DNA of 64,000 nt, from assembly GCA_018607365.1 (NCBI GenBank), contig JABBBT010000015.1, forward strand, positions 15,733-79,732, written 5' to 3'. The stretch comes from SAR86 cluster bacterium. GTDB taxonomy: Bacteria; Pseudomonadota; Gammaproteobacteria; Magnimaribacterales; D2472. Below are positions 4,541-34,105 of this stretch, one piece after another (position 1 is the stretch's first letter; each line of letters opens with the position of its first letter). The notes beneath the pieces were generated by a model. The model was not told where the DNA came from. It saw only the letters and a program-made list of their open reading frames with translations, and did no database searches. A program made the position numbers and the translations under genes.

Positions 4541-4541
4541 A

Positions 4542-18093: not shown

Positions 18094-18142
18094 ATATTCT
18101 GCAAAAAGAGTATAAATATTGCTGTGATTATTAAATATTACT

Positions 18143-18835
18143 ATGTCTAAAAAAATTCTTATTATTGAAGATGAGCCTGATATCCGCAAGACAATTGAAT
18201 ACAATCTTGCAAGAGAAGGTTTCGAAACCCATACTGCAGCATCAATTGGAGAGGGTAGATCAATTCTTACTGATTCATTTGCGTTACTAGTTTTAGATCT
18301 TATGCTTCCAGATGGCTCTGGTTTAGATTTATGTAGAGAAATCAAATCTAATAAAACCTTATCAAATATTCCTATTGTTATATTGACGGCAAAAGATGAC
18401 GAGGTAGACAAAGTGGTTGGTTTTGAGCTGGGTGCAGATGATTATGTAACTAAACCTTTTAGTGTTCGAGAGTTAATTCTAAGAATTAAGGCCATCTTAA
18501 AAAGAGGTAATAAAGAAACTCATGAAACAGTAGAAATAGAACGTCAATTTGGAGATCTTGTTATTGATGTAGACTCTCATGAGGTTTTTGTTAATAAAGA
18601 GCAAGTAGTATTGACTGCCCTGGAGTTTAGATTATTAAAACAACTTATTGACAGAAGAGGTAGAGTTCAATCAAGAGACCAACTTCTTTCAGATGTATGG
18701 GGTTACAGCTCAAATGTAACAACAAGAACTGTTGATACGCATATAAAAAGGCTCCGAGAAAAACTCGGATCAATGGGAAAATATGTGCAAACGATAAGAG
18801 GAGTTGGTTATAAATTCTCTAGAACGCCTGAGTAA
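18143..18835 (+). CDS. phoB: Phosphate regulon response regulator PhoB (OmpR family)
   Basis: Receiver domain (DEPD...LDLMLPDGSG...TAK). Winged-helix LTALEFRLLK...TVDTHIKRLREKL...IRGVGYKF. Followed by a PhoR-type kinase gene. Confidence 0.8.
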   Translation: MSKKILIIEDEPDIRKTIEYNLAREGFETHTAASIGEGRSILTDSFALLVLDLMLPDGSGLDLCREIKSNKTLSNIPIVILTAKDDEVDKVVGFELGADDYVTKPFSVRELILRIKAILKRGNKETHETVEIERQFGDLVIDVDSHEVFVNKEQVVLTALEFRLLKQLIDRRGRVQSRDQLLSDVWGYSSNVTTRTVDTHIKRLREKLGSMGKYVQTIRGVGYKFSRTPE

Positions 18836-18840
18836 AATAT

Positions 18841-20601
18841 ATGGGAATTAGATCCCGGATATTTTTAATTGTTTTCCTGTTATTAACAGTAAGCATTGCA
18901 ATTACATATGTGGTTGCTGAGAGAGACCTAACTAGAACTTTTAAACTTCAAATAGTTGATGAACTAGAAAAACAAGCTAACCTTCTTGTTGCCTCAGTTG
19001 ATAATCTCAATAAATTTTCTAATATAAATGATGCAGATAATGCAGCTAATGAATTAGGCAAAGCTTCAAACTCAAGAGTAACATTTATAACTAATAATGG
19101 TAACGTAATTGGTGATTCGCAGCTAGAAATAGAGCAAATATCATCTCTTGATAATCATGCTTTAAGAGAGGAGTTTGTTGATGCCTTAAAAAACGGAAAT
19201 GGGTGGTCGTCGAGGTACAGCAATACCCTTAATCAAGATCTTCTATATTTTGCAATTAAAGACAACCAAGAAATCAACCCTAATATAATTAGAATTGCAG
19301 TGCCTTTAAATTATCTGGATAAAATAACAGATACACTAAGTCTATCTGTTATTTTGCTATTTGCAGTTGTATTTATTGTGTCAATTATAGCAAGTGGTGT
19401 TGCTGCCAATTTTCTATATTCAAATATTCAGGATTTAGCTGAAGCGGCTAATAGTATCTCTAAAGGTGTTCTTAAAAATGATAATTTGAAAGCATTACCA
19501 ACTCAAAGAGTTGATGAATTTGGCACAGTTGCCCGATCAATATCTCAAATATCTGAAGATTTAAAAAATCAAATAAAAATGATTGCTAAACAAAGAGATC
19601 AATTTGGTTTAGTTTTAGATGATCTTGGAGAGGGTATTATTGTAACAAATAAAAAAGGTGACGTTGTTTTTACTAATGAGCAAGCATCAATTATTTTACA
19701 TATAGACGATTTATCAAATACAAATATAAAAAAATTAGATATTCCAGCTCTTAATTATCTTTTTAAGAGAGTAAAAAATAAAAAAAGTGCAGATATTGAA
19801 TTTGAAATTGAAATAGATAACAAAAATACTCAATGGGTTCTTGGTTCAATGAATCAATCTAAGACCACTGGAGAATTTATTTTAGTTGTTCATGATATAA
19901 CCCAACTTCGTCAGCTTAACTCAATGAGAAGAGATTTTATATCGAACTTATCACATGAATTAAGAACCCCTGTGAGTGTTATTAGGGCAAATTCCGAAAC
20001 TCTACTTGATGGCGCATTAGAAAATAAAAAGGATGCAAAGGTATTTGCTAAAGCCATCTTACGTAACTCTGAAAGATTGTCGTTAATGGTTTCCGATTTA
20101 ATAGATTTATCAAGAATTGAATATGGCGACTTGAAACTTAATATTGTTCCGATCGATCTTGATAGTTTTATTGAACCTTTTATTTTATCCATGGAAAGCC
20201 TCACAAAAAAGAAGGGCATTAATCTTACATACAAGCCAGCACATAAAACAAAAATTAAAGCTGATGTTCAGGCACTTGAAAGAATTTTAACTAATTTGAT
20301 TGATAACGCCTTCAAGTACTCTCCTGAAGAATCTTTCATTGAGATCTCTACCAAGCAAGATGATAATAATGTAAGGGTTATGGTTTCTGATAATGGTATT
20401 GGAATTTCAGAAGCTGATAAAGGATATATCTTTGATAGATTTTATAGAGCTGCGTCGGCAAGAGCTTCACACAATAAAGGAAGTGGTCTAGGGCTGGCTA
20501 TTGTAAAAAATCTAGTTAATAGTCTAAACGGAGAAGTTGGGGTTTCGTCTGGCTCACCTGAGGGCTCTACCTTTTGGTTTACATTGCCATCAGGGAAGTA
20601 G
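18841..20601 (+). CDS. phoR: PhoR-like sensor histidine kinase (2 TM, ~135-aa periplasmic domain, HAMP, PAS, HisKA, HATPase)
   Basis: H-box FISNLSHELRTPVS. N-box LIDNAFKYS. G-boxes DNGIGI and GSGLGLAIV. Starts 5 nt after phoB. Confidence 0.75.
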   Translation: MGIRSRIFLIVFLLLTVSIAITYVVAERDLTRTFKLQIVDELEKQANLLVASVDNLNKFSNINDADNAANELGKASNSRVTFITNNGNVIGDSQLEIEQISSLDNHALREEFVDALKNGNGWSSRYSNTLNQDLLYFAIKDNQEINPNIIRIAVPLNYLDKITDTLSLSVILLFAVVFIVSIIASGVAANFLYSNIQDLAEAANSISKGVLKNDNLKALPTQRVDEFGTVARSISQISEDLKNQIKMIAKQRDQFGLVLDDLGEGIIVTNKKGDVVFTNEQASIILHIDDLSNTNIKKLDIPALNYLFKRVKNKKSADIEFEIEIDNKNTQWVLGSMNQSKTTGEFILVVHDITQLRQLNSMRRDFISNLSHELRTPVSVIRANSETLLDGALENKKDAKVFAKAILRNSERLSLMVSDLIDLSRIEYGDLKLNIVPIDLDSFIEPFILSMESLTKKKGINLTYKPAHKTKIKADVQALERILTNLIDNAFKYSPEESFIEISTKQDDNNVRVMVSDNGIGISEADKGYIFDRFYRAASARASHNKGSGLGLAIVKNLVNSLNGEVGVSSGSPEGSTFWFTLPSGK

Positions 20602-20632
20602 TTACTTTACTTTTTCTATAAATTATATTATT

Positions 20633-20672
20633 CTGTCACATGAATGTCACATAAGTGTTACATTAATGAAAT
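20633..20672 (+). promoter_or_regulatory. Pho-box array (putative PhoB binding site): four 7-nt repeats at 11-bp pitch
   Basis: Sequence CTGTCAC atga ATGTCAC ataa GTGTTAC atta ATGAAAT. The first 18 nt match the consensus CTGTCATA(A/T)A(T/A)CTGTCA(C/T) at 15/18 positions. Confidence 0.7.
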
Positions 20673-20692
20673 ACACATACGGGAGTGTTTTG

Positions 20693-20779
20693 ATGGTTAA
20701 GACAATATGGAAAAAATTTCATACTTTTATGAAAGCAGGAAGACTTAATAAGGTTGTAAAGATATCTGGCCTTAGATAA
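20693..20779 (+). CDS. Candidate 28-aa highly basic peptide (MVKTIWKKFHTFMKAGRLNKVVKISGLR) downstream of the Pho box
   Basis: SD GGGAG (20681-20685) lies 7 nt before the ATG at 20693. It sits ~20-30 nt after the Pho-box array. No acidic residues; 6 Lys and 2 Arg. Confidence 0.35.
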   Translation: MVKTIWKKFHTFMKAGRLNKVVKISGLR

Positions 20780-20837
20780 GAGATTATTTTACCTATCTCG
20801 TTTAGTTTATATTTTTTTATTTACCTTTTTAGTAAAT

Positions 20838-20873
20838 AATTATCATTTAATTTTTATTGAAATTATCACTTAA
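20838..20873 (+). repeat. 13-bp direct repeat AATTATCA(T/C)TTAA x2, 23-bp pitch, 50-85 nt upstream of gspC
   Basis: Copies at 20838-20850 and 20861-20873, 12/13 identical. Confidence 0.5.
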
Positions 20874-20921
20874 ATATTTAGCTACCATTATAAAATAAGC
20901 TACACTTAGAACATATTTTGT

Positions 20922-21326
20922 ATGTTTAATTTTAAGTTAATAAAAAAGATTATAATTTTGGTTATCGCTATTCCATCGATACTATTACTTATATTTTTTG
21001 TAACTCAGCTTAACATCAATCCAAAGATTAATAGTTTTGAAATACTCAATGTTGTTGATGTCAATGCATCTGGGAATTCTCAAATCGAAGAGCTCAATAA
21101 CGATTCAAGCAAACAATCAAATATATCCTTTCAATATAAATTAATTGGGTATCGGTCTGGTGGGCCTGACGCTTCTGTTATAGTAAAAAAATCTAATAAG
21201 GAATTTGTTGTATCTATTGGACAAAAACTAGAGGGTGTCTTTGAGCTAATTGAAGTTAACCAAAATGAGGTAATTTTTAAAGATGGTGATAAATTATATA
21301 AAATTGAAAATTTAGTGGGTAAATAA
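20922..21326 (+). CDS. gspC: Type II secretion protein GspC, minimal form (TM plus HR domain only, no PDZ/coiled coil)
   Basis: N-terminal TM (IIILVIAIPSILLLIFFV). HR-like C-terminus GYRSGGPDASVIVKKSNKEFVVSIGQKLEGVFELIEVNQNEVIFKDGDKLYKIEN. Immediately precedes gspD. Confidence 0.7.
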   Translation: MFNFKLIKKIIILVIAIPSILLLIFFVTQLNINPKINSFEILNVVDVNASGNSQIEELNNDSSKQSNISFQYKLIGYRSGGPDASVIVKKSNKEFVVSIGQKLEGVFELIEVNQNEVIFKDGDKLYKIENLVGK

Positions 21327-21327
21327 G

Positions 21328-23181
21328 ATGAATTTAGATTTGAATAAACTATTAATATTATGCATTTTTGTGTCCTCATCGCAGCTTTTTGCAGATGATT
21401 CTTTCATATTAAATTATGAGGATGTTGATATTAAAAAAGTAACTCAAGACATAGCTCAGTTTTCAAAAAAAACCATAATCTTAGATCCTAGAGTTAAGGG
21501 TAAAATTACTATTTATTCTAATGCAGAACTAGATAGAGACCAAGTATGGAATGTATATCTCAGAACACTTCAGGTAAATGGATTTAGTATTATTTCAGAA
21601 GAGGGTTTTGTTAGAATTATTCCAGAAAATGAAGCTACAAGAGATTTAAGCATTGCAACAAAAACTTTAGGTGACTTTGAGACTGTTGTAATACCGCTTA
21701 CTAACAGATCTGCTGATGAGATTCTTCCTATGGTAAAGCCTATTACCGGTAGGCAAGCTCATCTATCTAGCATTCCATCAATTAATTCTATTCTTTTGGT
21801 AGATAGGGGGAGTAATGTTGAAAGAGTTAATCGACTTATTTTAGATCTTGATAAAAATAATACTGCAAAAATATCAATAACTAAGCTTGAAAACTTGTCG
21901 CCTATTGAAGCTGTAAGAATTTTAGACAAGTTAAAAGCACAAAACAATCCAACAATAAGTAAGTTTATTGCAATACCTTTTAGCCCAACTAATTCAGTCA
22001 TAATATCTGCAAATGATTTTGTTACTAATAATATTAATCTTACTTTGCAATCTCTTGATGCTGATGTGACTTCTGATGATTCAGTGGATGTTATTTATTT
22101 AAAATATGCAAAGGCAGCTGATATTTCTGCAATTCTTAGTTCTATATCAAGTAGTTTTATTGCAGATGCAGATGGTAAGAAAACTGTTATTACACATCAT
22201 GAAAAAACTAATTCTTTAATAATTTCATCTGCTGAAGCTAACCTCGATACGATTAAAAATATTATTTCAAAGCTAGACATTAGAAGAGCTCAAGTTCTTG
22301 TTGAAGCTATTATTGTTGAGCTTTCTGAGACCGCTGCAAAAAATCTTGGTGTTGAAACTATTTATAATGGAAGTAATAGTGACAGTGTGCCTATTGGAGT
22401 TACAAGGTTCGGAGGAGCTGGGCCTGATTTATTATCTATTGTTGGAGCTGCCAGCAATGATCAGGATGTTAACTTAAACACTTCAGCTATATCCTCGCTC
22501 CTAAACACTCAAGGACTCGTTACAGGATTTGGTGATCTTTCTGATGGCGGTGATAAATTTATAGGAATAATTAATGCTATTGCTCAGGACACTAACTCAA
22601 ATATCCTATCAACTCCATCAATTTTGGCAATGGATAATGAAACTGCTAATCTAGTTATTGGTCAGGAAATACCCATTACAACAGGTGAAAGCCTGGGCAC
22701 CAGTAATGCTAACCCATTTAGAACTACATCAAGACAGGAAGTTGGGATTAAGCTTGAAGTTACACCACAAATAAATGAAGGAAGCTCTGTAATACTTAAT
22801 ATTAAACAAGAGGTATCTGGAGTAGCTGGTGTTATTACAAGTGGAATAGACTTAATTACAAATAAGAGAGTCATAGAAACAACAGTGCTAGTCGATAATG
22901 GTCAAATCATTGTTCTAGGTGGCTTAATTGATGAAGATACACAAGAAACAGTTTCAAAGGTTCCAATTTTAGGTTCAATTCCAATACTTGGTAAGTTGTT
23001 TCAGTCCTCTTCATCTACCGTGGTTCAAAAAAATCTAATGGTTTTTTTAAGGCCTACCATCATTCTTGATTCAGATATATCAAATCAATTGTCTAATGAT
23101 AAATATAATTATATTAAAGCTAGGCAAGTTCTTACTGGAGAATCAACACAGCTTATTGACCTTACACAGTCTGAAAATTAA
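21328..23181 (+). CDS. gspD: Type II secretion outer-membrane secretin GspD
   Basis: Signal peptide. N0-like NYEDVDIKKVTQDIAQFSKKTIILDPRVKG. Secretin core VLVDNGQIIVLGGLIDE...VSKVPILGSIPILGKLF. Confidence 0.9.
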   Translation: MNLDLNKLLILCIFVSSSQLFADDSFILNYEDVDIKKVTQDIAQFSKKTIILDPRVKGKITIYSNAELDRDQVWNVYLRTLQVNGFSIISEEGFVRIIPENEATRDLSIATKTLGDFETVVIPLTNRSADEILPMVKPITGRQAHLSSIPSINSILLVDRGSNVERVNRLILDLDKNNTAKISITKLENLSPIEAVRILDKLKAQNNPTISKFIAIPFSPTNSVIISANDFVTNNINLTLQSLDADVTSDDSVDVIYLKYAKAADISAILSSISSSFIADADGKKTVITHHEKTNSLIISSAEANLDTIKNIISKLDIRRAQVLVEAIIVELSETAAKNLGVETIYNGSNSDSVPIGVTRFGGAGPDLLSIVGAASNDQDVNLNTSAISSLLNTQGLVTGFGDLSDGGDKFIGIINAIAQDTNSNILSTPSILAMDNETANLVIGQEIPITTGESLGTSNANPFRTTSRQEVGIKLEVTPQINEGSSVILNIKQEVSGVAGVITSGIDLITNKRVIETTVLVDNGQIIVLGGLIDEDTQETVSKVPILGSIPILGKLFQSSSSTVVQKNLMVFLRPTIILDSDISNQLSNDKYNYIKARQVLTGESTQLIDLTQSEN

Positions 23182-23189
23182 TCTTAGTA

Positions 23190-24689
23190 ATGGAAAACTT
23201 TAAGGATCAAGAAGATCTCTCCAACATACTCCCGTATGATTTTGTAAAAGAAAATGATGTTTTGGCATTCAGTGACGGAGATTCCTTTTCAGTAATATCG
23301 CCAAATAATTTATCTGATGACATTTATCATGAAATACAAAGATTTCTTAAATCTAATTTCTCTTTTTCATTATGCAAGTCTGATTATTTTAATGATTTGT
23401 TAACAAGTAGCTTTTCAATCAATAAAGACTCAACGTCACTCTCCGAAGAACTTACAGATGAGTTTGATTTGCAAAGTTTTGCTGGAAGCATTTCTGCTAC
23501 CGAAGATTTACTAAGTGGAAGTAACGATACACCAATAATAAAGTTAATAAATGGGATAATTAGCCAAGCTGTTAAAAATAGAGCCTCCGATATTCATTTT
23601 GAACCATACGAAAATACCCTTATTGTAAGATTTAGAGTTGATGGTATTTTAAAAGAAATTCTTAAGCAGGATAGTAAAATAAGCTCTGTGTTAATATCAA
23701 GAATAAAGATAATATCAGGACTTGATATATCTGAACGAAGACTACCTCAAGATGGAAGGGTATCTTTATCGCTTGGAGATAAGGATATTGATGTAAGAGT
23801 ATCTACGTTGCCATCATCTTATGGTGAAAGAATAGTGCTAAGACTTTTAGATAAGCAAGCTTCTCAAATTAATATTGATGACCTTGGATTGCCGTCAGTA
23901 ATTCTAAAAAACTACAAATCATCTTTAAAAAATTCCGAAGGCATAATTTTATTTACAGGTCCTACAGGATCAGGTAAAACAACAACACTATATTCTGGAT
24001 TAAGACATCTAAGCGATTCTTCTCAAAATATTTTAACTGTTGAAGATCCTATTGAATATACGTTAAATGGGATTGGTCAAACCCAGGTAAATACAAAAAC
24101 AGGATATACCTTTGCAAAAGGATTAAGAGCCATACTTCGTCAAGATCCTGATGTTGTCATGGTTGGTGAGATGAGGGATGTTGAAACAGCACAGATTGGC
24201 ATTCAGGCTAGTCTTACGGGCCATCTTGTGCTATCTACAGTTCATACTAATAGTGCTGTGGCTGCTATAACCAGATTAAGAGACATGGGAATCGAGTCAT
24301 TTCTGCTTGCATCTAGTTTAAGAACTGTAATCTCACAAAGATTAGTCAGACGTCTATGTTTAATATGTAAAAAAGAAGAATCACCTTCAAAGGATTCTAT
24401 TAAGCTATTTAATTTAAATACTAATAAAAAGGTGTTTATATCTTCTGGGTGTGATGCCTGTTCAAATACAGGTTACCAAGGAAGAATTGCAATTGCTGAA
24501 TGCATTCAAGTAGATAAAACTTTAAAAGAAATGATACATAATAATGCTTCAGAAAATTTAATATCAGAACATGTCTTTAAAAACAATCAATCAATCGATG
24601 AGGCTTCCTCAGAATTAATTTCAAAAGGTATTACATCTTGCGAAGAGCTCATAAGAATTAACAATCTTCAAGAAAATGCCAGCTTATAG
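23190..24689 (+). CDS. gspE: Type II secretion ATPase GspE
   Basis: Walker A GPTGSGKTTT. Asp/His boxes (ILRQDPDVVMVGEMRD, GHLVLSTVHTN). Tetracysteine CLIC...CDAC. Confidence 0.95.
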   Translation: MENFKDQEDLSNILPYDFVKENDVLAFSDGDSFSVISPNNLSDDIYHEIQRFLKSNFSFSLCKSDYFNDLLTSSFSINKDSTSLSEELTDEFDLQSFAGSISATEDLLSGSNDTPIIKLINGIISQAVKNRASDIHFEPYENTLIVRFRVDGILKEILKQDSKISSVLISRIKIISGLDISERRLPQDGRVSLSLGDKDIDVRVSTLPSSYGERIVLRLLDKQASQINIDDLGLPSVILKNYKSSLKNSEGIILFTGPTGSGKTTTLYSGLRHLSDSSQNILTVEDPIEYTLNGIGQTQVNTKTGYTFAKGLRAILRQDPDVVMVGEMRDVETAQIGIQASLTGHLVLSTVHTNSAVAAITRLRDMGIESFLLASSLRTVISQRLVRRLCLICKKEESPSKDSIKLFNLNTNKKVFISSGCDACSNTGYQGRIAIAECIQVDKTLKEMIHNNASENLISEHVFKNNQSIDEASSELISKGITSCEELIRINNLQENASL

Positions 24690-25872
24690 CTACTCAGCAA
24701 TAGACCCAAATGGTTTAAAAAAGAAGGGTTTACTTAGTGCTCAGTCTGAAAGAGAAGCAAGAAAATTAATAAAAGAATTAAACCTCACACCAATTAATGT
24801 ATCTGAAACTAACGGTAATCTTTCAAGAATATCTAGAGTAAAAACAAAAGATATTGTCATAATGACTCGGCAGATGGCTACATTGCTAGAAGCTAATACA
24901 TCGATTATAGATGCATTAAAGATAACCTCAGATCAATGTGTTAACAAGAATCTAGTTCATATTTTATTAAATCTAAGGGAAGATATTATTCAAGGAAAAA
25001 GGCTAGGGGTCTCTATGAATAAGTATCCAGGAGTATTTACTAATACTTATACTTCACTGGTTACAGCAGGAGATTCCTCAGGTAATTTGGACGTGATATT
25101 TGATAGGCTGGCTGACTATTTAGAGGAAAGCGCATCCATAAGACAGAAAGTTATTTCAGCTTTAACCTACCCAGTTATATTAATAGGATTTTCAATAATA
25201 GTAATAATATCCTTACTAGCATTTGTTTTGCCACAGGTTGTAGGGCAGTTTGTTAAAGCTGGAGCTGAATTACCTTTTATTACTAAAGCTTTGCTGGCAA
25301 TTTCGAATAATATAGGAATTATAATTATTTCGTCTGTTTTGGTAATAATTTGCTTCACTTATTTTTATAAATATTTTGTTAAACAAGCTAACAACCATAC
25401 CAATGTTCATGAAAAAATACTTGGAATCCCTTTGATTGGAAACTTTTTATTAAATTCAGAAATTGAAAGGTTTTCAAGCACCATGAGTTTGCTTCTTGAG
25501 TCAGGGACTAATTTAGATGTAGCTCTTGATGAGTCATCTAAAATATTCACTAATAAATTTTTATCGAAGAGTATTTCAGACACTAGGCAAGATGTTGTTG
25601 AAGGAAAGGATTTTATATTTTCGTTAAAGAAAAAAAATGTTTTCCCAGATATTTTTATACAACTTGTATCTAGTGGGTATAAATCAGGTAACTTGGTAAA
25701 AATGTTTTCTAAAGTCTCAGAATTTATGAAAAATGAAATTGAATCAAAGAGATCAGTACTCTTGTCATTATTGGAGCCATTAGTAATTATATTTATGGGT
25801 GGATTTATTATGCTTATAGTTCTAGCTATACTAATACCTATAATGCAAATGAATACTTTAGCTTTAGGATAA
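24676..25872 (+). CDS. gspF: Type II secretion inner-membrane platform protein GspF
   Basis: Duplicated GspF domain, 3 TM segments, 14-nt overlap with gspE. Confidence 0.9.
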   Translation: MPAYSYSAIDPNGLKKKGLLSAQSEREARKLIKELNLTPINVSETNGNLSRISRVKTKDIVIMTRQMATLLEANTSIIDALKITSDQCVNKNLVHILLNLREDIIQGKRLGVSMNKYPGVFTNTYTSLVTAGDSSGNLDVIFDRLADYLEESASIRQKVISALTYPVILIGFSIIVIISLLAFVLPQVVGQFVKAGAELPFITKALLAISNNIGIIIISSVLVIICFTYFYKYFVKQANNHTNVHEKILGIPLIGNFLLNSEIERFSSTMSLLLESGTNLDVALDESSKIFTNKFLSKSISDTRQDVVEGKDFIFSLKKKNVFPDIFIQLVSSGYKSGNLVKMFSKVSEFMKNEIESKRSVLLSLLEPLVIIFMGGFIMLIVLAILIPIMQMNTLALG

Positions 25873-25875
25873 ATT

Positions 25876-26304
25876 ATGAATAAATATAATAAAGGTTTTA
25901 CAATGATTGAACTTATGGCTGTTCTGGTTATTTTAGGTATTTTAGCCACTATAGTTGTTGTAAATACTGCCCCAGTATTCCAAAGAGCTAACCTTGAAAA
26001 AATTAAAGCTGATATGTCTCAAACAGGAAAAGCCTTGGAGCTATACAAGTTTAATGAGCTGTCATACCCAACAACTTCACAGGGCTTAATAGCGCTTGTT
26101 AACCCACATTCAGAATTAAGAAATCCATTTTTATATCCTGAGGGTGGTTATATCTCATCTGAACCTCTTGATCCATGGGGCAGGGAGTATATTTATGAAA
26201 ACCCACCCAGAAGGGCAAAAAAATATGATCTATACACTTTAGGTGCAGATGGGATGCCTGGGGGAACTGGTGAGGATTCTGATATTGGAAATTGGATGCA
26301 ATAA
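25876..26304 (+). CDS. gspG: Major pseudopilin GspG
   Basis: Prepilin leader MNKYNKG|FTMIELMAVLVILGILA. Conserved C-terminal DPWGREY...LGADGMPGG. Confidence 0.95.
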   Translation: MNKYNKGFTMIELMAVLVILGILATIVVVNTAPVFQRANLEKIKADMSQTGKALELYKFNELSYPTTSQGLIALVNPHSELRNPFLYPEGGYISSEPLDPWGREYIYENPPRRAKKYDLYTLGADGMPGGTGEDSDIGNWMQ

Positions 26305-26785
26305 AAAAAAGAAAGGCTTCACTTTAATTGAGGTTCTTGTTGTACTAGTTATTATAGGCATAACATCATCATTGTTATTTCTTAATATAGGCCTGTCTGA
26401 AACAGTTTCAAAAAATAAGCTGTCTTTAAATACTCTTTTTAATTATCTTTCTGAAGAAAGCATTATTACTGGAAATCTAATAGCTTGGCATGCCAATGAT
26501 AAGAAAGATTTTATATACATAATAGACCATCAGATGCAAAAACAAATGCTTTTAGATAATACTCAGTCGCCATGGAAAAATTTTTCTTCCAACAGTAAAA
26601 CATTTAAGTATTTTGATGGTTCTATTATGCAATTAGATAAGAATGATTTGAGTAAACCGCTTATTATTTTCTACCCTTCAGGAGAAAATTCGGGAGGAGT
26701 AATAAGTATTTCTTTTTCAAATTTCATCCAAGAGATTACAATTAACAATAATGGAAAAATTGAAACCAAAATTATTGAATACTAA
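26285..26785 (+). CDS. gspH: Minor pseudopilin GspH
   Basis: Prepilin motif KKKKG|FTLIEVLVVLVIIGI. Start uncertain: the ORF opens at 26243 and a TTG at 26285 gives a short leader. Confidence 0.75.
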   Translation: MEIGCNKKKKGFTLIEVLVVLVIIGITSSLLFLNIGLSETVSKNKLSLNTLFNYLSEESIITGNLIAWHANDKKDFIYIIDHQMQKQMLLDNTQSPWKNFSSNSKTFKYFDGSIMQLDKNDLSKPLIIFYPSGENSGGVISISFSNFIQEITINNNGKIETKIIEY

Positions 26786-27137
26786 AAAAGGCTTCAGTCT
26801 TTTTGAAATTGTTATTGCTTTGGCAATTTTAAGCACATCCCTATTAGTAATTTATAACTTAATTTTATCTACGAGCGTATCTGTATATAAATTAGAAGAT
26901 CATTACTTGGCTAAAGAAGTAGCTAATAATAGAATCGCACTAATTAATACCATTGAAAAGCCCTCAAAGCCCATAAATAGAAATGGAATGGACCCAATGG
27001 GAGGCAAGAATTGGAAGTGGGAAGAATCGTTTTATATTGGAATTAGTGATGAATTTCTAGAATATGAGATATTAATTAAGTCTGAAGGCTCAACACAATA
27101 TATCTATAGAACAAAAGGATATTTAGTTAATGAATAG
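26751..27137 (+). CDS. gspI: Minor pseudopilin GspI
   Basis: Prepilin motif KKG|FSLFEIVIALAILS. Size and position are typical. Confidence 0.85.
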   Translation: MEKLKPKLLNTKKGFSLFEIVIALAILSTSLLVIYNLILSTSVSVYKLEDHYLAKEVANNRIALINTIEKPSKPINRNGMDPMGGKNWKWEESFYIGISDEFLEYEILIKSEGSTQYIYRTKGYLVNE

Positions 27138-27723
27138 GGGGTTTACAATAATAGAAGTACTAATTTCACTTGTCATACTTTCGATAATTACATTAATCAC
27201 ATCAAATATACTTAAATCATCTTTAGATACAGAGTATCAAACAACAAATTATCTTAATAAAATAAAAGATATCAATTTATCTTCAAGTAAAATCAGAAGA
27301 GATCTTAGGCAAATTGTAAACATCACATCTCGTGACTTTTATGGAAATAATATGTCTGGCAGTTTTGTTGCAAATCAAGGTATGAATTCAATTATTTTTA
27401 ATAGCAAAATTAGTTCTATTGCTAATGATGTATCTCCAATTAAAAGGGTTGAATATATTTATGAAGAAAAACAAATTAAGAGAAGACAATATTTTTCTTC
27501 AAATCCATATGATCAAAACCAATTTATAGAGTCATTGATCCTAAGGAATGTTGATGATTTAAGTTTTAGTTTTTTAAGTTCTAATAAGTGGCACTCTTTT
27601 TGGCCTGTTAACAATGCTTCATCAAAGCAAATACCAAGGTTAATTAAGATAGAATTCACTTTAGATAAAAAATCATATACATGGATAATTGAACCTAACA
27701 TCTCGTATGTATCTCAAAACTAG
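27130..27723 (+). CDS. gspJ: Minor pseudopilin GspJ
   Basis: Prepilin motif MNRG|FTIIEVLISLVILSI. 8-nt overlap with gspI. Confidence 0.85.
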   Translation: MNRGFTIIEVLISLVILSIITLITSNILKSSLDTEYQTTNYLNKIKDINLSSSKIRRDLRQIVNITSRDFYGNNMSGSFVANQGMNSIIFNSKISSIANDVSPIKRVEYIYEEKQIKRRQYFSSNPYDQNQFIESLILRNVDDLSFSFLSSNKWHSFWPVNNASSKQIPRLIKIEFTLDKKSYTWIIEPNISYVSQN

Positions 27724-28681
27724 TAATAAAGGGGTTGTTTTAATATCAGTCTTGTTAATAATTTTATTATTGTCATCTGTTGCTGTTGTTATTGGAAATA
27801 ATTATTTAATATCTTTAAAAAGAGCTACTTATCTTGAATTCCAGTCTACTTCATTAAATGTCTTTAAAAATCTTGAGTCTTTGGCATTAAAAAAAATAGA
27901 CATAGAGCTTAAATTTAATTCCAATAAGCTGTCCCGAAATAACCCCTTACTTAATAACGATTTATATTTTGAGACTGATGGAGGGATAGTTACTGCAAAA
28001 ATTTCAGATAATTCAAATTGTTTCAATATAAATGCGTTGGTTATTAAAAATAAAAAAAATTATATCGAAAATAAGAAATCAATAGATGCTTTTAGAAAAT
28101 TTATGAGATTTCAATCTGTTGATAATAATTTAATTGAAGAGATGGTCGACCAAGTTATTGATTGGATTGATCTTGACTCTGATCCTCGCGCATATGGTCT
28201 TGAAGACTATTTTTATTCTGGACCACTAAACAACCCAAAAGAATATACAGGAAGAAGATTATTTTTTAGTGTTGATGAACTAAAAGGCATTCCAGCTTTT
28301 AGAAAGATTAATTGGCAGATTATAAAAAATAATTTTTGTAGTATTAATACTAACTCAGAACTTACACTAAACTTAAATACATTAAATCTTGATGACTCTT
28401 ATTTATTGTCTTCCTTTTTTCCAAATATAGCTTTGAGTGAAGCTGAGTATATTATTGATACTATTCCTGATGAAGGCATTGAAAACTTCAACTCTTTAAA
28501 ATCTCTTCACCCTATGAAAGATTTTGAGGCGCAATATGGAAATATTAAATTTTCTTCATCAACCTTTGACCTTACTACTCTCATAACTAATGATAACTTT
28601 TCTGTTTTATCTATTAGCAAAATAATTCATGATAAGAACAAAAATAGCTATATTATTTCAAGAACATATAATGGTATTTAA
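27707..28681 (+). CDS. gspK: Minor pseudopilin GspK
   Basis: N-terminal KGVVLISVLLIILLL without Glu5. Motif DWIDLDSDPR...EDYFY typical of GspK. The ATG at 27707 is preferred over the TTG at 27689. Confidence 0.8.
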   Translation: MYLKTSNKGVVLISVLLIILLLSSVAVVIGNNYLISLKRATYLEFQSTSLNVFKNLESLALKKIDIELKFNSNKLSRNNPLLNNDLYFETDGGIVTAKISDNSNCFNINALVIKNKKNYIENKKSIDAFRKFMRFQSVDNNLIEEMVDQVIDWIDLDSDPRAYGLEDYFYSGPLNNPKEYTGRRLFFSVDELKGIPAFRKINWQIIKNNFCSINTNSELTLNLNTLNLDDSYLLSSFFPNIALSEAEYIIDTIPDEGIENFNSLKSLHPMKDFEAQYGNIKFSSSTFDLTTLITNDNFSVLSISKIIHDKNKNSYIISRTYNGI

Positions 28682-29830
28682 ATGAATACCTATATTGCAA
28701 ATTTTCTAGACAGCTCATGCAAATCCTTTGATTTATATTCTTCTAATAAAGGACTTATATCTAGTGAACGTTTCTTAGATATAGATGACTTAAAAAACCT
28801 AGATAATAGTTCTTTATTGGTAGTTTTAATACCTTCAATATTGATAACTTCATATCAAAACTTAAAAAATACAGGCTTATCTGAAGATATTAATTTAGCT
28901 AATTTTATATCAGATATTGATAATAAAATCGTAGATCAAATTTCATATAATGAGTTTCTTTTTCACGAGAAGAATGCTTTTATTATTAACAAGGTGATAT
29001 TAGAAGATTTAAACAAATCACTAACTCAGCTAGACATTAATATTATATTAATGCCAGAGTATTCTTTTTTTAGGCATGAGAATGACGAAGATGTAATATT
29101 TGAACTAAATAATAAATTTATTTTTTCTAACTCAGATGGAACTGGTACAAGCGTATCAAGAGATAATCTGGAACAATACTGTCAGATAATTTCTGAATTC
29201 AAGGATTGCTATGACCCTGTAATTTATAGTAAACATAAATTTTTAAAAGCAAAATATCCTCATTCAAGTTTTGTTACTTCTGGTCTTGAGGGCTTTTTCA
29301 ACCAAGACTTTAAAAGATTTCCTAACTTTTATGAGTTTTATTTGTCATATCAATCAGTAAAAAGAAAATTTAATTTTACTATTGCCCAATTATTTATAAT
29401 TCTAATAGGACTGTCTTCTTTCTTTTTTTTACCATCAATGCTTATTAAAAATAATAATAATAATGCATTGGTTTATAAAAAAGCGACATTTGATATTTTT
29501 ACTGCCATAAATCAAGATATCAAAAAAGTAGTTAGGCCGAGATCCCAAATAGATTCAATCATGAATCAAATTCCTTTAGATAAAGTAAATAATGTTGAAC
29601 TTCCATCTTTAGGTTTTCTTGATCAAGTTGGCGATGAGTACTTAGATCGAATTTATGTCAATTTTAATGACTCAACTGTTGTAATAGATATTAGTGGAAT
29701 GCCTTTAATGCAATACAATCTGACAAAAAACCTTTCACAACAATTTGGTGTAGGTATTCTTAACGAAGAGGTTCTATCACCAAACAACATTGTTTCTGGA
29801 ACAATAACATTGAGCCTGCTAAATGAATAA
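28682..29830 (+). CDS. gspL: Type II secretion protein GspL
   Basis: Position after gspK, ~380 aa, one central TM (FIILIGLSSFFFLP). Sequence divergent; the call rests mainly on order and topology. Confidence 0.65.
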   Translation: MNTYIANFLDSSCKSFDLYSSNKGLISSERFLDIDDLKNLDNSSLLVVLIPSILITSYQNLKNTGLSEDINLANFISDIDNKIVDQISYNEFLFHEKNAFIINKVILEDLNKSLTQLDINIILMPEYSFFRHENDEDVIFELNNKFIFSNSDGTGTSVSRDNLEQYCQIISEFKDCYDPVIYSKHKFLKAKYPHSSFVTSGLEGFFNQDFKRFPNFYEFYLSYQSVKRKFNFTIAQLFIILIGLSSFFFLPSMLIKNNNNNALVYKKATFDIFTAINQDIKKVVRPRSQIDSIMNQIPLDKVNNVELPSLGFLDQVGDEYLDRIYVNFNDSTVVIDISGMPLMQYNLTKNLSQQFGVGILNEEVLSPNNIVSGTITLSLLNE

Positions 29831-30266
29831 ACTATTAAAAAGCTTAAAATCTCGTGAAATTTATTTACTTATAGCTTCTTTTCTTTTATTACTATTATTT
29901 GGGGTTGGCATCTTGTTATCTTCAACTTATAACACTTACAACATATCAGTAAAAAATTTAGATAAAGAAAGGGGCGACTATGAATATGTATTTAAAAAGT
30001 CATACCCGCTAACTCAGGCCACCAAACAAGCTAATATAAATCTTGCCTTGGTGAATAAGATTATCCTTTCAAATGAGATCTATAAGGGTATTTCAAATGT
30101 ATCTCTTGAGGACTCAGATATGCTAGTCATATCTTTTAACTCAATTGATCTTGGTATGGCTATTCTGCTAGCCGAGGAAATAGTCAATTCATCCTCAATG
30201 AGTATTTTAACGATAGAATCAAATAGAGTTGATGAGGGCGTAACTATTAAACTTTCGTTTATTTAA
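29823..30266 (+). CDS. gspM: Type II secretion protein GspM
   Basis: ~147 aa with one N-terminal TM (IYLLIASFLLLLLFGVGILL). Overlaps gspL by 8 nt. Call rests on order and topology. Confidence 0.6.
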   Translation: MNKLLKSLKSREIYLLIASFLLLLLFGVGILLSSTYNTYNISVKNLDKERGDYEYVFKKSYPLTQATKQANINLALVNKIILSNEIYKGISNVSLEDSDMLVISFNSIDLGMAILLAEEIVNSSSMSILTIESNRVDEGVTIKLSFI

Positions 30267-31123
30267 TCTTTATAGATTGATATTTTTTTTGAATAAAGTT
30301 CGTGGAATGTTTTTACAGCAATTGAATCTGAAACTCCCCACTTTGTTGATTCAATATCCCTAATCTCAAGATTATTTATTATCATGAGATAAATTTTTAA
30401 AGCATAATCTATAACATCTGCTCTATCTGGCTGAAGTTTAAATTGAAATATTTTTTCTTCTTGATTTAAGGTAGTTAATTCTTTAGATTTTTTAATAAAC
30501 AAATTCGAAGTTATTTGTTTGCATTTATAGATATTTAAAAACGATTTTATACTTCCACCTAGTCCGATGAGTGTATCTATGTCACTTTGTTTATTAAGCC
30601 ACTCAGAAAGGCGCAACCATTCATTTTTATCGTCTTTACCGAGCATAGATCTTACCGCACCCAACTGAAAAGATTGAATAATATGGTCTCCATTTTTATA
30701 TATATAAATTTCAGTACTGCCACCACCAACATCAACGTAAATCTTATTTTTACCTTCTTGAGCTTTTGGATGAAACCGTATTAATTTAGCCTCTTCTAAC
30801 CCTGAAATAATTCTTATAGGATGGTTAATGTTATTCTCAACATACCTCCTAGCATTTTCTGAATTTGATGTATCACGAAATGCACTAGTTGCAACGATCT
30901 CATACATTTTAATATTATTATTTAAAAAATTAGTCTGATACTTTATTAATGTTTTAATGAGCTCATCTAATTTATTATCTGACAGTATGCCTGTACTAAA
31001 AACCTCTGCGCCAAGTCTTATTGGTGATCTTATGCCTTCAATAAAATCAATAGTTGTGGGACTGGTATTAAACACTTTTGATTTAATAGCATTTGTACCA
31101 ATATCAATAGATGCTATTTTCAT
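30263..31123 (-). CDS. ppx: Ppx/GppA-family phosphatase, short form (exopolyphosphatase-like)
   Basis: ASKHA-fold motifs IASIDIGTNAIK and YVDVGGGSTEI. 286 aa with no C-terminal HD-like domains. ATGA-coupled to ppk2. Confidence 0.75.
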   Translation of the reverse strand: MKIASIDIGTNAIKSKVFNTSPTTIDFIEGIRSPIRLGAEVFSTGILSDNKLDELIKTLIKYQTNFLNNNIKMYEIVATSAFRDTSNSENARRYVENNINHPIRIISGLEEAKLIRFHPKAQEGKNKIYVDVGGGSTEIYIYKNGDHIIQSFQLGAVRSMLGKDDKNEWLRLSEWLNKQSDIDTLIGLGGSIKSFLNIYKCKQITSNLFIKKSKELTTLNQEEKIFQFKLQPDRADVIDYALKIYLMIINNLEIRDIESTKWGVSDSIAVKTFHELYSKKISIYKD

Positions 31124-31962
31124 TCTGTATCATCACTATATTTGGTAATTATCATAAATTGCTCATAAGTAAGATTGTCAAAATGAACCCCCTCAATACT
31201 TGCTGAGTAGTTAGATATAGCTTTTGACCATTTCACTGGCTTTAGTATTTTTTTATTTTCATAATCCATCTTATTCAGAAGGTACCTTAAGGCTGTTAAT
31301 CTACCTATCATCTTATTATTTGAATTAATCATTACCCATGGCGATAGCTCAGTAGCAGTTCTTGAAAACATTTGTTCCTTATAGAAAGTAAAAGCATCCC
31401 ATTTAGTTATGATTTTTTCGTCGTTTTTAGATAATTTCCAGTATTTAAGTTGAGAGTTTTTTCTTGCGTTCATCCTTCTTTCTTGCTGATCTCTTGATAG
31501 TGAAAAATAAAATTTAGTTATTTCTACATTATTTAAAATATGATCCTCTTCCCATTTATTAACTCTACTCATAAATGTTCTATATTGATTTTCAGAACAA
31601 TATCCCATAATTGGCTCTGTTATTGCTCGCGTATACCATGATCTGTCTAAGAATGAGATCTCACCATTTTGGGGTATAACTTTCCCCCATCTTTGAAACC
31701 AATGAGATGACTCCCATTTAGATGGAATTCCTAATTGAACGTAGTTAAAATTATTAGGCCTCAAGTATTCAGAGAAGAATTTTATTGCAGAACTTTTTCC
31801 TGCAGTGTCTCTGCCTTCAAATACAATGCATAACTTCCTATTATTTTTAATAACATCTTCTTGAAGCTTTAATAATTCAATTTGAAGTCTTCTTTTTTCC
31901 AATGCATATGCTTTAGCATGAAGTCTTTTGTATTCCGATTGATCTAAAGATATAAGATTCAT
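31120..31962 (-). CDS. ppk2: Polyphosphate kinase 2 family protein
   Basis: Motifs FEGRDTAGKSS (Walker A-like), FLDRSWY and the lid region RMNARKNSQLKYWKLS. Confidence 0.8.
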   Translation of the reverse strand: MNLISLDQSEYKRLHAKAYALEKRRLQIELLKLQEDVIKNNRKLCIVFEGRDTAGKSSAIKFFSEYLRPNNFNYVQLGIPSKWESSHWFQRWGKVIPQNGEISFLDRSWYTRAITEPIMGYCSENQYRTFMSRVNKWEEDHILNNVEITKFYFSLSRDQQERRMNARKNSQLKYWKLSKNDEKIITKWDAFTFYKEQMFSRTATELSPWVMINSNNKMIGRLTALRYLLNKMDYENKKILKPVKWSKAISNYSASIEGVHFDNLTYEQFMIITKYSDDTE

Positions 31963-32002
31963 TTATATTTGTATTGTTTATTTCACTAAAAAGTAATTGT
32001 AA

Positions 32003-32020
32003 ATTCACATGAATGTAACA
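32003..32020 (+). promoter_or_regulatory. Pho-box-like site in the ppk2<>pitA divergent spacer
   Basis: ATTCACATGAATGTAACA. The exact 12-mer TCACATGAATGT (32005-32016) is identical to 20636-20647 in the phoR-gspC Pho box. A partial repeat ATTCACATG lies at 32034-32042. Confidence 0.5.
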
Positions 32021-32067
32021 ACCAGAAGTTCTAATTCACATGTTAAATTTATATAACAGGTAAAACA

Positions 32068-33330
32068 ATGGAAAATTTATTCTTAGATCCTACACTTATT
32101 CTTATTATAGCGGCTTTTGCTGGGTTTTTCATGGCATTCGGAATTGGTGCAAATGATGTTGCTAATGCTATGGGAACATCTGTAGGAAGCAAGGCCATAA
32201 CATTTAAGCAGGCTATATTTATTGCTGCGATCTTTGAATTTTTAGGCGCATATTTAGCTGGAGGTGAAGTTACATCAACTATTAGAAAAGGAATAGTCGA
32301 TCCAGATCTCTACATAGGAAAAGAAAATATATTTATTATTGGGATGCTATCTGCATTATTAGCTGCAGGTACATGGCTTCTAATAGCAAGCTCTAAGGGC
32401 TGGCCAGTATCTACAACGCATTCTATTGTTGGTTCTATAGTTGGGTTTGTAATAATATCAATGGGCTTTCAAGCCGTTTCTTGGGATAAAGTTGGAACCA
32501 TTGCTGCTAGCTGGGTTGTCTCGCCTGCAATTTCAGGAACAATGGCATTTTTTATATTTTTAAGTGCTAAGAAATTTATCCTAGATAGAAGAGATCCAGC
32601 ACAAGCGGCTGTATCTTTAATACCTCTTTACAGTTTCTTTGTAGCCGTAATTATAGGTTTAGTTACTGCTAGAAAAGGTTTGAAACATGTAGGTTTGCCT
32701 CTCACTGATAATGAGGTTGTTTTAGTTACAATAGCATTTGGATTAGTTGTCACAGTAATTACATATATTCTTTTAAATATAAACAAAGAAAAAATTAAAA
32801 AGAATGGTGTTGAATCAGCTTTTGCTGTTCTTATGATAGTTACTGCATCAGCTATGGCTTTTGCTCATGGCTCAAATGATGTAGCAAATGCTATCGGTCC
32901 AATGTCTGCAATAATTAGCGTTGCCTCAGAAGGAGCAATTGGAGCAAAATCAGCAGTTAGTCCCTGGGTTTTATTGATTGGTGGAGTGGGTATAGTTTTT
33001 GGTTTGGCTATGCTGGGAGGTAGAGTTATCAAAACTGTTGGTAGTAAAATTACTACACTAACTCCTAGTCTAGGATTTTCAGCTGAGATGGCAGCCGCAT
33101 CTACTGTTGTAGCTGCGACTTACATAGGATTTCCTATATCAACAACACATACGCTTGTAGGAGCTGTTATTGGGGTAGGTCTTGCTAAAGGTGTTTCTCA
33201 TCTAGATCTGAGCTCTATAGGTAGAATCATCCTTTCTTGGGTAGTAACAATACCTGCTGGCGCTACATTAACAGTATTGTTTTATGTTTTATTAAGATTT
33301 ATTGAAACCTTAATGACAGTAGGGGTTTAA
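32068..33330 (+). CDS. pitA: Inorganic phosphate transporter, PiT family
   Basis: Duplicated GANDVANA(M/I)G signature (GIGANDVANAMGTSVGS and HGSNDVANAIGP). About 10-12 TM segments. Confidence 0.9.
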   Translation: MENLFLDPTLILIIAAFAGFFMAFGIGANDVANAMGTSVGSKAITFKQAIFIAAIFEFLGAYLAGGEVTSTIRKGIVDPDLYIGKENIFIIGMLSALLAAGTWLLIASSKGWPVSTTHSIVGSIVGFVIISMGFQAVSWDKVGTIAASWVVSPAISGTMAFFIFLSAKKFILDRRDPAQAAVSLIPLYSFFVAVIIGLVTARKGLKHVGLPLTDNEVVLVTIAFGLVVTVITYILLNINKEKIKKNGVESAFAVLMIVTASAMAFAHGSNDVANAIGPMSAIISVASEGAIGAKSAVSPWVLLIGGVGIVFGLAMLGGRVIKTVGSKITTLTPSLGFSAEMAAASTVVAATYIGFPISTTHTLVGAVIGVGLAKGVSHLDLSSIGRIILSWVVTIPAGATLTVLFYVLLRFIETLMTVGV

Positions 33331-33344
33331 TTAATAGCTTAAAT

Positions 33345-33941
33345 TCAAGAGCTTTGATTAATCCAATTAAGTAAATAGGAAAGGCCCGCTCTGTGGGCCT
33401 CGATCCTTCCAACCTCATTTAACTCTCCGTTTTCTTTTGCATTTAATGCAAATACAGATAGGATAAGTTGAGTAAGTACTCTATAGACACCACTTTTATT
33501 GTACATGTCAGGAAGCTCAATATTTTTATCAATAAAGTATTCAATAGAACTTGCTAAACCATGCATAGATTCAGAGGACATTGGAGGACTTACTGTATTT
33601 TTTAAAATAATTAATTGAGCAGGTTTGGATGATCTAAAATATTCATACATTACCTCAACCGTCTTTAAAACAATTACAGAAACTTGATTAGTTTCAAGTG
33701 GCGTTAATTCCTCTCTAAATACATTTTCACAATCTTTAAAATAACCCTTAATCATCATTGCTTTTAAAGAGTCAGTTGTAGGAAAAAATTTGTAAGTAGA
33801 TGTTCTCTTTAGACCTGAATATTTTGCAATATTTGCAATTGTTATGGCATCAAGCCCATCTCTAAGAAGAATTGATTCGGCAGTTTGAAGAATAAGTTCA
33901 ACTCTTTTTTTACTTCTTTCTTGCTTGGCAATTATTTCCAT
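33345..33941 (-). CDS. TetR/AcrR-family transcriptional regulator
   Basis: N-terminal HTH (ITIANIAKYSGLKRTSTYKFFPT), ~200 aa, divergent from the porin gene. Confidence 0.8.
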   Translation of the reverse strand: MEIIAKQERSKKRVELILQTAESILLRDGLDAITIANIAKYSGLKRTSTYKFFPTTDSLKAMMIKGYFKDCENVFREELTPLETNQVSVIVLKTVEVMYEYFRSSKPAQLIILKNTVSPPMSSESMHGLASSIEYFIDKNIELPDMYNKSGVYRVLTQLILSVFALNAKENGELNEVGRIEAHRAGLSYLLNWINQSS

Positions 33942-34010
33942 TATTAGATTATGGACAAATGTTTAGAAAAGTAAAATACATAGAGTAAATATTTTTAAGA
34001 ATCACACTTC

Positions 34011-34050
34011 TATACATAACTTATTATATGTTGAAGTTATTTTATGTATA
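34011..34050. promoter_or_regulatory. Imperfect inverted repeat, candidate TetR operator
   Basis: TATACATAA(ctt)...(aagttatt)TTATGTATA. The 9-bp outer arms are perfect, with inner AACTT/AAGTT arms. Lies in the tetR<>porin spacer. Confidence 0.4.
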
Positions 34051-34105
34051 TAATTTTATTATTAATGATAATTGATATAAAGAACAACATTAAACATAAA
34101 TAAAC

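Follow-up and report, generated by a model that had tools for sequence, protein, structure and literature searches.

The window analyzed here, a 64,000-nucleotide stretch of contig JABBBT010000015.1 from a SAR86 cluster bacterium (assembly GCA_018607365.1, positions 15,733 to 79,732 of the forward strand), contains a type II secretion system (T2SS) operon, gspC–M, that lies among genes for phosphate sensing, polyphosphate turnover and phosphate uptake. SAR86 bacteria are among the most abundant in the surface ocean. The window has a GC content of ~31%, and a homologue search with its GspE found the nearest relatives to be SAR86 metagenome-assembled genomes and single-cell genomes. The interpretation that we prefer, and to which we give about an even chance of being right, is that the region represents a phosphate island with an embedded T2SS that has its own promoter, and that the link between the T2SS and phosphorus (P) would lie in the cargo of the secretion system and not in control of the machine itself.

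Under this interpretation the island would be made up of a PhoB/PhoR-like sensor, a Pho-box-driven gene of only 28 codons, ppk2-ppx for polyphosphate turnover, and a Pho-box-driven PiT phosphate transporter gene. The predicted PhoB sites would serve the 28-codon gene and the PiT gene only and, in relatives, outer-membrane acquisition modules as well, while the gsp operon would be run from its own -10-like element, largely independently of phosphate, as the secretion machine of the cell. In many relatives a terminator-like hairpin would insulate the gsp operon from upstream transcription. The tie to P scavenging would be the cargo, namely a Pho-box-preceded lipoprotein with its receptor and, in a divergent family of SAR86 loci, a phytase with a receptor. 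In the strain studied here the cargo slot is empty and the hairpin appears to have decayed, which would allow some Pho-dependent read-through into gspC.

The comparison on which this is based covered ~90 loci (87 mapped), which were gathered by scanning genomes with GspE and metagenomes with GspD and onto which the window proteins were mapped by tblastn; individual loci are cited by their L numbers. The gene identities, the synteny and its variants, the positions of the boxes and the coding status of the 28-codon open reading frame (ORF) are direct observations. An initial annotation of the same stretch had listed a phoB/phoR-like pair, a Pho-box array, gspC–M, convergent ppx/ppk2 and a PiT gene, and our searches with Pfam and NCBIfam upheld both the genes and their coordinates. 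Two fine details of that annotation were also read in the sequence: the stop codons of gspM and ppx overlap within TTAA (30263-30266), and ppk2 is coupled to ppx through ATGA (31120-31123).

The Pho-box array lies on the forward strand at 20633-20665 and consists of three direct half-sites with an 11-bp period, TGTCAC (20634-20639), TGTCAC (20645-20650) and TGTTAC (20656-20661), which together span 20634-20661 and score 30.6 bits (20633) and 22.5 bits (20644) with the position weight matrix (PWM) described below. The Pho box reported earlier between phoR and gspC is real, but it is not that of gspC; it precedes an unannotated, conserved gene of 28 codons (20693-20779, forward strand; product MVKTIWKKFHTFMKAGRLNKVVKISGLR). 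This gene is the first after the array, and it has a Shine-Dalgarno sequence, GGGAG, at 20681-20685, ~20 nt past the Pho box, and a start codon ~30 nt downstream of the box. The same arrangement of array, Shine-Dalgarno sequence and 28 codons was found in more than 40 related loci. The gene was not present in lineages without the Pho box, and in L004, L151 and L153, which have neither the 28-codon gene nor the box, gspC keeps the -10-like element. Based on this co-variation of the box with the 28-codon gene, and not with gspC, we assigned the Pho box to the 28-codon gene.

The ORF at 20693-20779 is a real protein-coding gene under purifying selection, as indicated by its conserved start and length and by its in-frame substitution pattern. 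All 34 distinct nucleotide versions start with ATG and have 28 codons, nine residues are invariant and variation is concentrated at third codon positions; across these versions the ratio of non-synonymous to synonymous polymorphism (pN/pS) was 0.27 in the coding frame and 1.2 and 2.1 in the two others. The product is highly basic, with the consensus M[IV]KxxWxKFHxFMK[SA]GRLNKV[IV]K[IL]SG[LI]x. It had no match in Pfam, as ten variants scanned at E-values up to 10 returned only noise, and a resemblance to DUF1127 small proteins was not supported by that scan. At 87 nt including the stop codon, the gene is probably too short for standard gene callers, and we regard it as a likely clean case of a conserved small protein that such programs miss through their minimum length. 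Other small genes were seen in Pho contexts, encoding 41 residues with a C-terminal transmembrane (TM) segment (L163:17180-17305, L161:21094-21219, and L166:6660-6785). The one in L163 has a Pho-box-like array before it and a PiT gene just downstream, and at a Halieaceae locus a 41-residue gene is found between phoU and the gene of a phosphate porin.

Pho boxes were sought with a 22-bp PWM that had been built from the sites upstream of the 28-codon gene. Across ~1 Mb of SAR86 loci, matches of at least 11 bits fell in three places only: between phoR and the 28-codon gene, between ppk2 and pit (facing pit), and upstream of the gene of a 971-aa beta-helix lipoprotein that is considered below. In the window, the pit box, TTCACATGAATGTAAC (32002-32023, forward strand, toward PiT), is a second, weaker box of 8.2 bits, with 44 nt intervening between it and the PiT ATG. 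In relatives this box scores up to 20 bits, and in nine of the 12 distinct loci having this spacer it ends 44-49 nt before the ATG in the same orientation. Direct repeats of the Pho-box type (7-bp repeats with an 11-bp period) do, then, front phosphate genes, at the array at 20633-20665 and at the pit box. The conserved pit box fits with a published experiment in which P limitation gave higher levels of SAR86 pit transcripts than P amendment did (PMC12981677). Among 65 distinct gspC-proximal upstream segments the best PWM score was 1.0 bit, which is not above that of shuffled sequence, and in the window no PWM box was identified before phoB, the gene of a PhoD-like phosphatase, gspO or the other proposed cargo genes. 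Matches at 29168 (inside gspL) and 51128 (before a pseudouridine synthase gene) look like chance and were set aside.

The region just upstream of gspC (20922-21326, forward strand) has a different element, a -10-like octamer (GCTACACT/GCTACAAT) at 20899-20906 on the forward strand, ~15-20 nt before the gspC ATG, that is the putative gsp promoter. Across loci the octamer occurs as GCTACAAT, GCTACACT or GCTAAAAT, and it is kept whatever the upstream gene, be it the 28-codon gene, a TonB receptor gene, an acyl-CoA ligase gene or phoR. It is the sole intergenic copy of the motif in the window; GCTAMAMT as a general promoter motif was rejected, as it is not enriched in the window. Many relatives have a strong hairpin here (-13 to -16 kcal/mol, z -3.5 to -7) whose 5' arm is formed by the octamer; its stem is perfect over 9-14 bp, and a run of T residues leads from it to the gspC ATG (e.g., L001:7710-7742, L138:2355-2394). 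The arms of this hairpin show compensatory changes (GGGCTAC/GTAGCCC, GAGCTAC/GTAGCTC, and AAGCTAC/GTAGCTT). By its form the hairpin would be terminator-like for the upstream transcript, and a transcript that starts inside the octamer hairpin could not form it. The octamer and hairpin may represent a terminator that overlaps a promoter, or else a palindromic operator. In the window the corresponding hairpin (20880-20924 region) is degenerate, at a non-significant -4 kcal/mol, and no terminator was predicted between the 28-codon gene and gspC, so that transcripts from the Pho promoter might run on into gspC here. Based on the putative promoter element of its own and the presumed insulating hairpin in relatives, expression of the gsp operon is most likely largely phosphate-independent.

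The adjacency of phosphate and T2SS genes, which the initial annotation had asked to be checked for uniqueness to this genome, recurs in related contigs. The layout of the window was found in ~60 of them, with GspD proteins 73-100% identical to that of the window, and the commonest order was GGT, acyl-CoA ligase(s), phoB, phoR, 28-codon gene, gspC-M, ppx, ppk2, pit. However, the entire ~25-kb neighborhood is syntenic throughout, including GGT, two acyl-CoA ligases, gspO and a tRNA, so the conservation is not specific to the pairing of P genes with the T2SS. Several variants of the layout were identified. In L004, phoR is directly before gspC, without the box or the 28-codon gene, and in L151 and L153 the acyl-CoA ligase gene leads straight to gspC without phoBR. 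An aquaporin (MIP) gene is present between gspM and ppx in L002 (L002:17064-17705) and L009 (L009:6347-7015). In the L007-like lineage, whose GspD is ~65% identical to that of the window, gspC-M is accompanied by an acyl-CoA ligase gene, gspO and a thioesterase gene, and phosphate genes are missing from its surroundings. The phosphate/T2SS linkage is modular. The earlier claim of a functional module stands in that the adjacency is conserved, with clustering even in a divergent family, but falls short in that there is no Pho box at gspC and the linkage is modular. Immediately upstream of gspC in L007 (L007:67-3555) are genes of a cadherin/Big_9-repeat protein of more than 1160 aa and of a 342-aa uncharacterized protein, possibly a lineage-specific cargo.

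A possible tie through cargo is seen in more than a dozen of the 87 mapped loci, in which the 971-aa lipoprotein and a TonB-dependent receptor are encoded between phoR, or the 28-codon gene, and gspC. This pair is not in the window, where the slot between the Pho box and gspC is empty. The lipoprotein is ~970-1160 aa with an internal duplication and is always paired with a TonB-dependent receptor (L001:2072-7652; L166:10001-16290). The beta-helix lipoprotein itself had no sequence relative in the PDB and no match in the Pfam release scanned; all of its homologues carry Pfam PF28492, Beta_helix_4. Remnants of the 3' end of the TonB receptor gene are present upstream of gspC in L099, L100, L130 and L134, from which we conclude that the cargo module has been lost repeatedly. 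Alignment of the spacer between the 28-codon gene and gspC of the window with 3' ends of TonB receptor genes gave only a hint that this lineage may once have carried the module. The Beta_helix_4 and receptor pair of a Halieaceae genome adjoins pstSCAB-phoU and a phosphate porin gene, with no T2SS nearby, and this position beside pstSCAB-phoU marks the pair as a Pho-associated uptake module. Together, these contexts indicate that the Beta_helix_4 lipoprotein and its receptor are likely an uncharacterized P-acquisition pair.

A complete 1.19-Mb SAR86 genome (CP097974) and related assemblies have the same gene families clustered with the T2SS in another order. The cluster starts with phoB, phoR (450 aa), ppx, ppk2, Beta_helix_4, receptor, aquaporin and a low-molecular-weight phosphatase/ArsC-like gene, and ends with an optional receptor plus phytase, PiT, gspO, gspC (276 aa), gspD and gspE. 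Identities of the proteins of this family to those of the window are low (PhoR 32%, Ppx 32-34%, PPK2 48%, and GspD 40%), and its outer flanks differ from those of the window. In this family phoR abuts ppx, and the phosphate island is uninterrupted, with the T2SS beside it, not inside it. As the island is contiguous without the T2SS, the latter is not an intrinsic part of it. The comparison shows that the proximity of the T2SS to the island has survived, or arisen twice across, a deep divergence. Within the phosphate island of the divergent family are also the MIP gene and the low-molecular-weight phosphatase/ArsC-like gene (L161:15972-17032), which may represent arsenate handling linked to phosphate uptake.

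Several points weigh against a T2SS that is run from its own promoter and tied to P by its cargo. Since the PWM was trained on the sites upstream of the 28-codon gene, only its matches at pit and at the lipoprotein gene are independent. The regulator and kinase of the window do not reach the NCBIfam equivalog cutoffs for PhoB and PhoR. The -10-like element of the window is weaker (TACACT), and nothing predicted would block Pho read-through into gspC here, so that the T2SS could be Pho-induced. Promoter and terminator function and PhoB binding are predicted at the level of consensus sequences, and expression behavior is inferred. Finally, the dependence of the beta-helix lipoprotein, the phytase and the PhoD-like protein on the T2SS is presumed; the lipoprotein and the phytase, with their receptors, are plausible candidates for T2SS-dependent surface or secreted proteins.

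A second explanation, possible but in our view doubtful, is that the contiguity is historical only. The T2SS would have been in, or have been inserted or recombined into, an ancestral phoBR-ppx-ppk2-pit island and have been kept there as streamlined genomes rearrange little, without any phosphate function. The equal synteny of GGT, the acyl-CoA ligases, gspO and the tRNA is in keeping with this, as are the contiguous island of the CP097974 family without a T2SS inside and the L007-like lineage, in which the acyl-CoA ligase, gspO, gspC-M and thioesterase genes occur without P genes. Unrelated inserts are also found at both gsp junctions, the aquaporin of L002 and L009 and the lipoprotein with its receptor, and the gsp cluster has 82-90% nucleotide identity inside flanks of 97-99% between co-occurring strains, as would be expected of an exchangeable cassette. 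However, the proximity of the T2SS and the island outlasts rearrangement, being present where GspD is only 40% identical and the outer flanks are wholly different, which is more than inertia predicts. In addition, the variable slot by gspC has been filled repeatedly with Pho-associated outer-membrane proteins.

The initial annotation had favored a third explanation, a single Pho-regulated module in which PhoB at the Pho box would switch on the T2SS to secrete P-scavenging enzymes such as a PhoD-like phosphatase. We consider this unlikely, and less probable than purely historical contiguity. In its favor, the Pho-box array of the window precedes gspC by 260 bp on the same strand, and no terminator is predicted between the two. 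A pair of SAR86 families that diverged deeply each have T2SS and P genes next to one another, in differing arrangements, and in relatives Pho-box-preceded genes of surface proteins adjoin gspC. In Pseudomonas aeruginosa, Hxc components and the LapA phosphatase accumulate under inorganic phosphate (Pi) limitation (PMC9769906), and this precedent, with the missing terminator in the window, keeps direct Pho control a live rival. Against it, the Pho box tracks the 28-codon gene, and lineages without that gene keep the promoter-like element of gspC; many relatives have the strong terminator-like hairpin immediately before gspC; L151 and L153 have no phoBR upstream of gspC, and the L007-like T2SS has no P genes beside it. 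The ppx-ppk2 genes are convergent to gsp and so cannot be co-transcribed with it.

The proposed cargo fares no better under direct Pho control. The PhoD-like metallophosphatase gene (9252-10244, reverse strand; Pfam PhoD 39 bits; PDB 2yeq, E = 4e-4) encodes a Sec-type signal peptide at the N-terminus of its product (MKLYTRLYQFLIIIFIANTANA), and the protein is a candidate exported phosphatase only. Its gene is 10.7 kb from gspC on the opposite strand and has no Pho box. The other proteins that had been put forward with it as T2SS cargo likewise have no Pho box, and nothing ties any of them to the T2SS. No phosphatase or phosphate-binding cargo gene adjoins the T2SS genes in the window. A putative beta-glucan (laminarin-type) utilization cluster was also noted at 847-5426, with a GH17-like lipoprotein, a TIM-barrel glycosidase with a signal peptide, an MFS_2 sugar transporter and a second GH17-like protein, and its exported members would be as plausible T2SS cargo as any phosphatase.

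The least likely explanation, improbable in our estimation, is that the SAR86 T2SS serves as an organelle for acquiring phosphate and has been inherited together with the Pho island. It would then display or release Pho-regulated outer-membrane proteins, namely the beta-helix lipoprotein, acting with a TonB receptor, and the phytase. The basic 28-residue protein, behind the strongest Pho box, would be a new small regulator through which phosphate starvation acts on the downstream secretion genes or on PhoR, and in this strain decay of the terminator would have brought the whole operon under Pho control by read-through.

The T2SS of the window is encoded on the forward strand except for its prepilin peptidase. 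GspD, the secretin (21328-23181), was identified by the Pfam domains N0 (81 bits), Secretin_N (90 bits) and Secretin (154 bits), and the GspE ATPase (23190-24689) by T2SSE (467 bits). The GspF platform protein (24676-25872), the major pseudopilin GspG (25876-26304), and the minor pseudopilins GspI (26751-27137), GspJ (27130-27723) and GspK (27689-28681) matched Pfam T2SSF, T2SSG, T2SSI, T2SSJ and T2SSK, respectively. The minor pseudopilin GspH (26243-26785) had matches to N_methyl and a below-cutoff TIGR01708 only. The GspO/PilD prepilin peptidase (12030-12830, reverse strand; Pfam A24_N_bact and Peptidase_A24), which was not in the earlier gene list, is encoded 8 kb upstream of gspC and completes the T2SS set from outside the operon. 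In relatives gspO is syntenic, and it directly adjoins gspC in L163, L168 and L171.

GspC, GspL and GspM of the window had no direct Pfam hit, and profiles of the SAR86 proteins searched against PDB sequences gave nothing useful. They were accepted based on their conserved position and on profile-profile matches to Pfam-verified GspL, GspM and GspC from other loci, which served as references. The divergent GspL (28682-29830) aligned over residues 31-378 (hhalign E = 2.8e-5) and the divergent GspM (29823-30266) over nearly its full length (E = 8.9e-5). Among orthologues, GspL_C was matched in L007 and P0242, and T2SSM in L007, L168 and L169. GspC, whose gene is directly 5' of gspD, is a minimal protein of 134 aa with a TM segment and an HR-like domain, and without a PDZ or coiled-coil region (Pfam T2SSC E = 0.14 at residues 72-122; hhalign E = 0.045, HR domain only). 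The L007-like lineage likewise has a short GspC (119-139 aa), and the 276-aa GspC of the CP097974 family has a full T2SSC match. L045 and L051 were rejected as T2SS reference loci, as they are type IV pilus pilBCD loci.

Comparison of 20500-30500 of the window with L087 showed flanks of 97-99% nucleotide identity and only 82-90% from the spacer between the 28-codon gene and gspC through gspM. In the comparison with L081, only gspK-L-M (28000-30500) and the Pho-box spacer diverge. This island of divergence points either to recombination with replacement of alleles or to diversifying selection acting on those parts of the T2SS that are exposed.

The PhoB-like OmpR-family response regulator (18143-18835, forward strand) has Response_reg and Trans_reg_C domains, and its best NCBIfam model was PhoB, TIGR02154, which scored 233 bits against a cutoff of 296 and was the top-ranked regulator model all the same. 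The PhoR-like histidine kinase (18841-20601, forward strand) is a long form of 586 aa, in which two TM segments bracket a periplasmic domain of ~140 aa (sub-threshold match to sCache_like) and are followed by HAMP, PAS, HisKA and HATPase domains. Its best NCBIfam models were PnpS (312 versus a cutoff of 400) and phoR_proteo (239 versus 334). Two PhoR architectures are found within SAR86, this long form and a short form of 449-450 aa with almost no periplasmic loop, the latter in L002 (L002:6151-7500, 449 aa), L003, L160 and the CP097974 family. The two forms are relevant to phosphate sensing where Pst is absent, and the periplasmic domain of the long form hints at sensing of phosphate that would be independent of Pst.

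Downstream of the gsp operon, a short exopolyphosphatase of the Ppx/GppA family is encoded on the reverse strand (30263-31123), convergent with gspM. The Pfam Ppx-GppA match (87 bits) covers the N-terminal half of the model only, and TIGR03706, at 153 bits, is below cutoff. The adjacent PPK2 (31120-31962, reverse strand) is a single-domain protein (Pfam PPK2 211 bits; TIGR03707 285 versus a cutoff of 302), and the homologue search with it returned matches 84-96% identical only, leaving distant contexts out of its reach. The transporter gene (32068-33330, forward strand) had been named pitA; it is of the PHO4/PiT family of inorganic phosphate transporters (Pfam PHO4 377 bits), but it is not an equivalog of Escherichia coli PitA, as the NCBIfam PitA model scored 75 against a cutoff of 800, and the NCBIfam CysP model was also far below its cutoff. 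Elsewhere in the window, a tRNA-Gly (TCC) gene (11086-11160, forward strand) is flanked by two lipoprotein genes (10261-11013 and 11165-11890) with no function assigned. An Rfam scan of 18000-34200 identified no known RNA.

All of the components of the island are of standard families, and phosphate-linked T2SS loci are already known. Greater originality lies in the 28-codon gene behind the Pho box, in the long-form PhoR, and in the element at gspC that is putatively both terminator and promoter. Should the T2SS serve Pho-regulated surface proteins, this would account for the access of a streamlined cell to organic or particulate P. The 28-codon gene, the PiT gene, and the lipoprotein with its receptor would in that case also offer a compact locus for following P stress in metatranscriptomes.

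The locus shares with the canonical gammaproteobacterial Pho regulon an OmpR-family regulator, a PAS kinase and direct-repeat boxes (CTGTCAC, with an 11-bp period), and its boxes closely resemble the E. coli Pho-box consensus, CTGTCATA(A/T)A(T/A)CTGTCA(C/T). It differs in that the kinase has a ~140-aa periplasmic domain, which E. coli PhoR lacks, and in that the boxes front the PiT and 28-codon genes and not pstS or phoA. The window ORFs scanned (~45 of the 67 ORFs of at least 100 aa) included neither pst genes nor phoU. In an isolate-anchored survey of SAR86, pit was core, and Pst was present in a subset only and patchy across the order; the survey makes no mention of "secretion" (PMC11582366).

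Among T2SSs, the closest parallels are the Hxc systems of P. aeruginosa (LapA/LapB) and P. fluorescens (Psp), in which the T2SS genes neighbor genes of phosphate starvation and the secreted cargo serves to scavenge phosphate. The gene of the DING cargo protein Psp was Pi-induced in P. fluorescens and hxcR was not (PMC2225411), and Psp/Hxc in this respect matches the picture proposed here, of Pho-regulated neighbors and a separately promoted machine. Hxc is, however, a dedicated system, the second T2SS of its host, and the gene of its phosphatase or DING cargo is adjacent. The SAR86 T2SS of the window has no adjoining phosphatase gene and no Pho box at gspC, and its neighbors are a regulator pair, polyphosphate enzymes and PiT. 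In Caulobacter crescentus the Pi-starvation-induced surface lipoprotein ElpS has its gene next to those of a complete T2SS, with expression of the latter in rich as well as poor media (PMC2996285), which parallels the Pho-box-preceded beta-helix lipoprotein by gspC in the SAR86 relatives. The two lipoprotein families are unrelated, and the SAR86 protein, in contrast to ElpS, is paired with a TonB receptor and is not in the window. A role of the T2SS in P scavenging is plausible, and the locus would be a further case of a phosphate-linked T2SS, in an ecologically important lineage.

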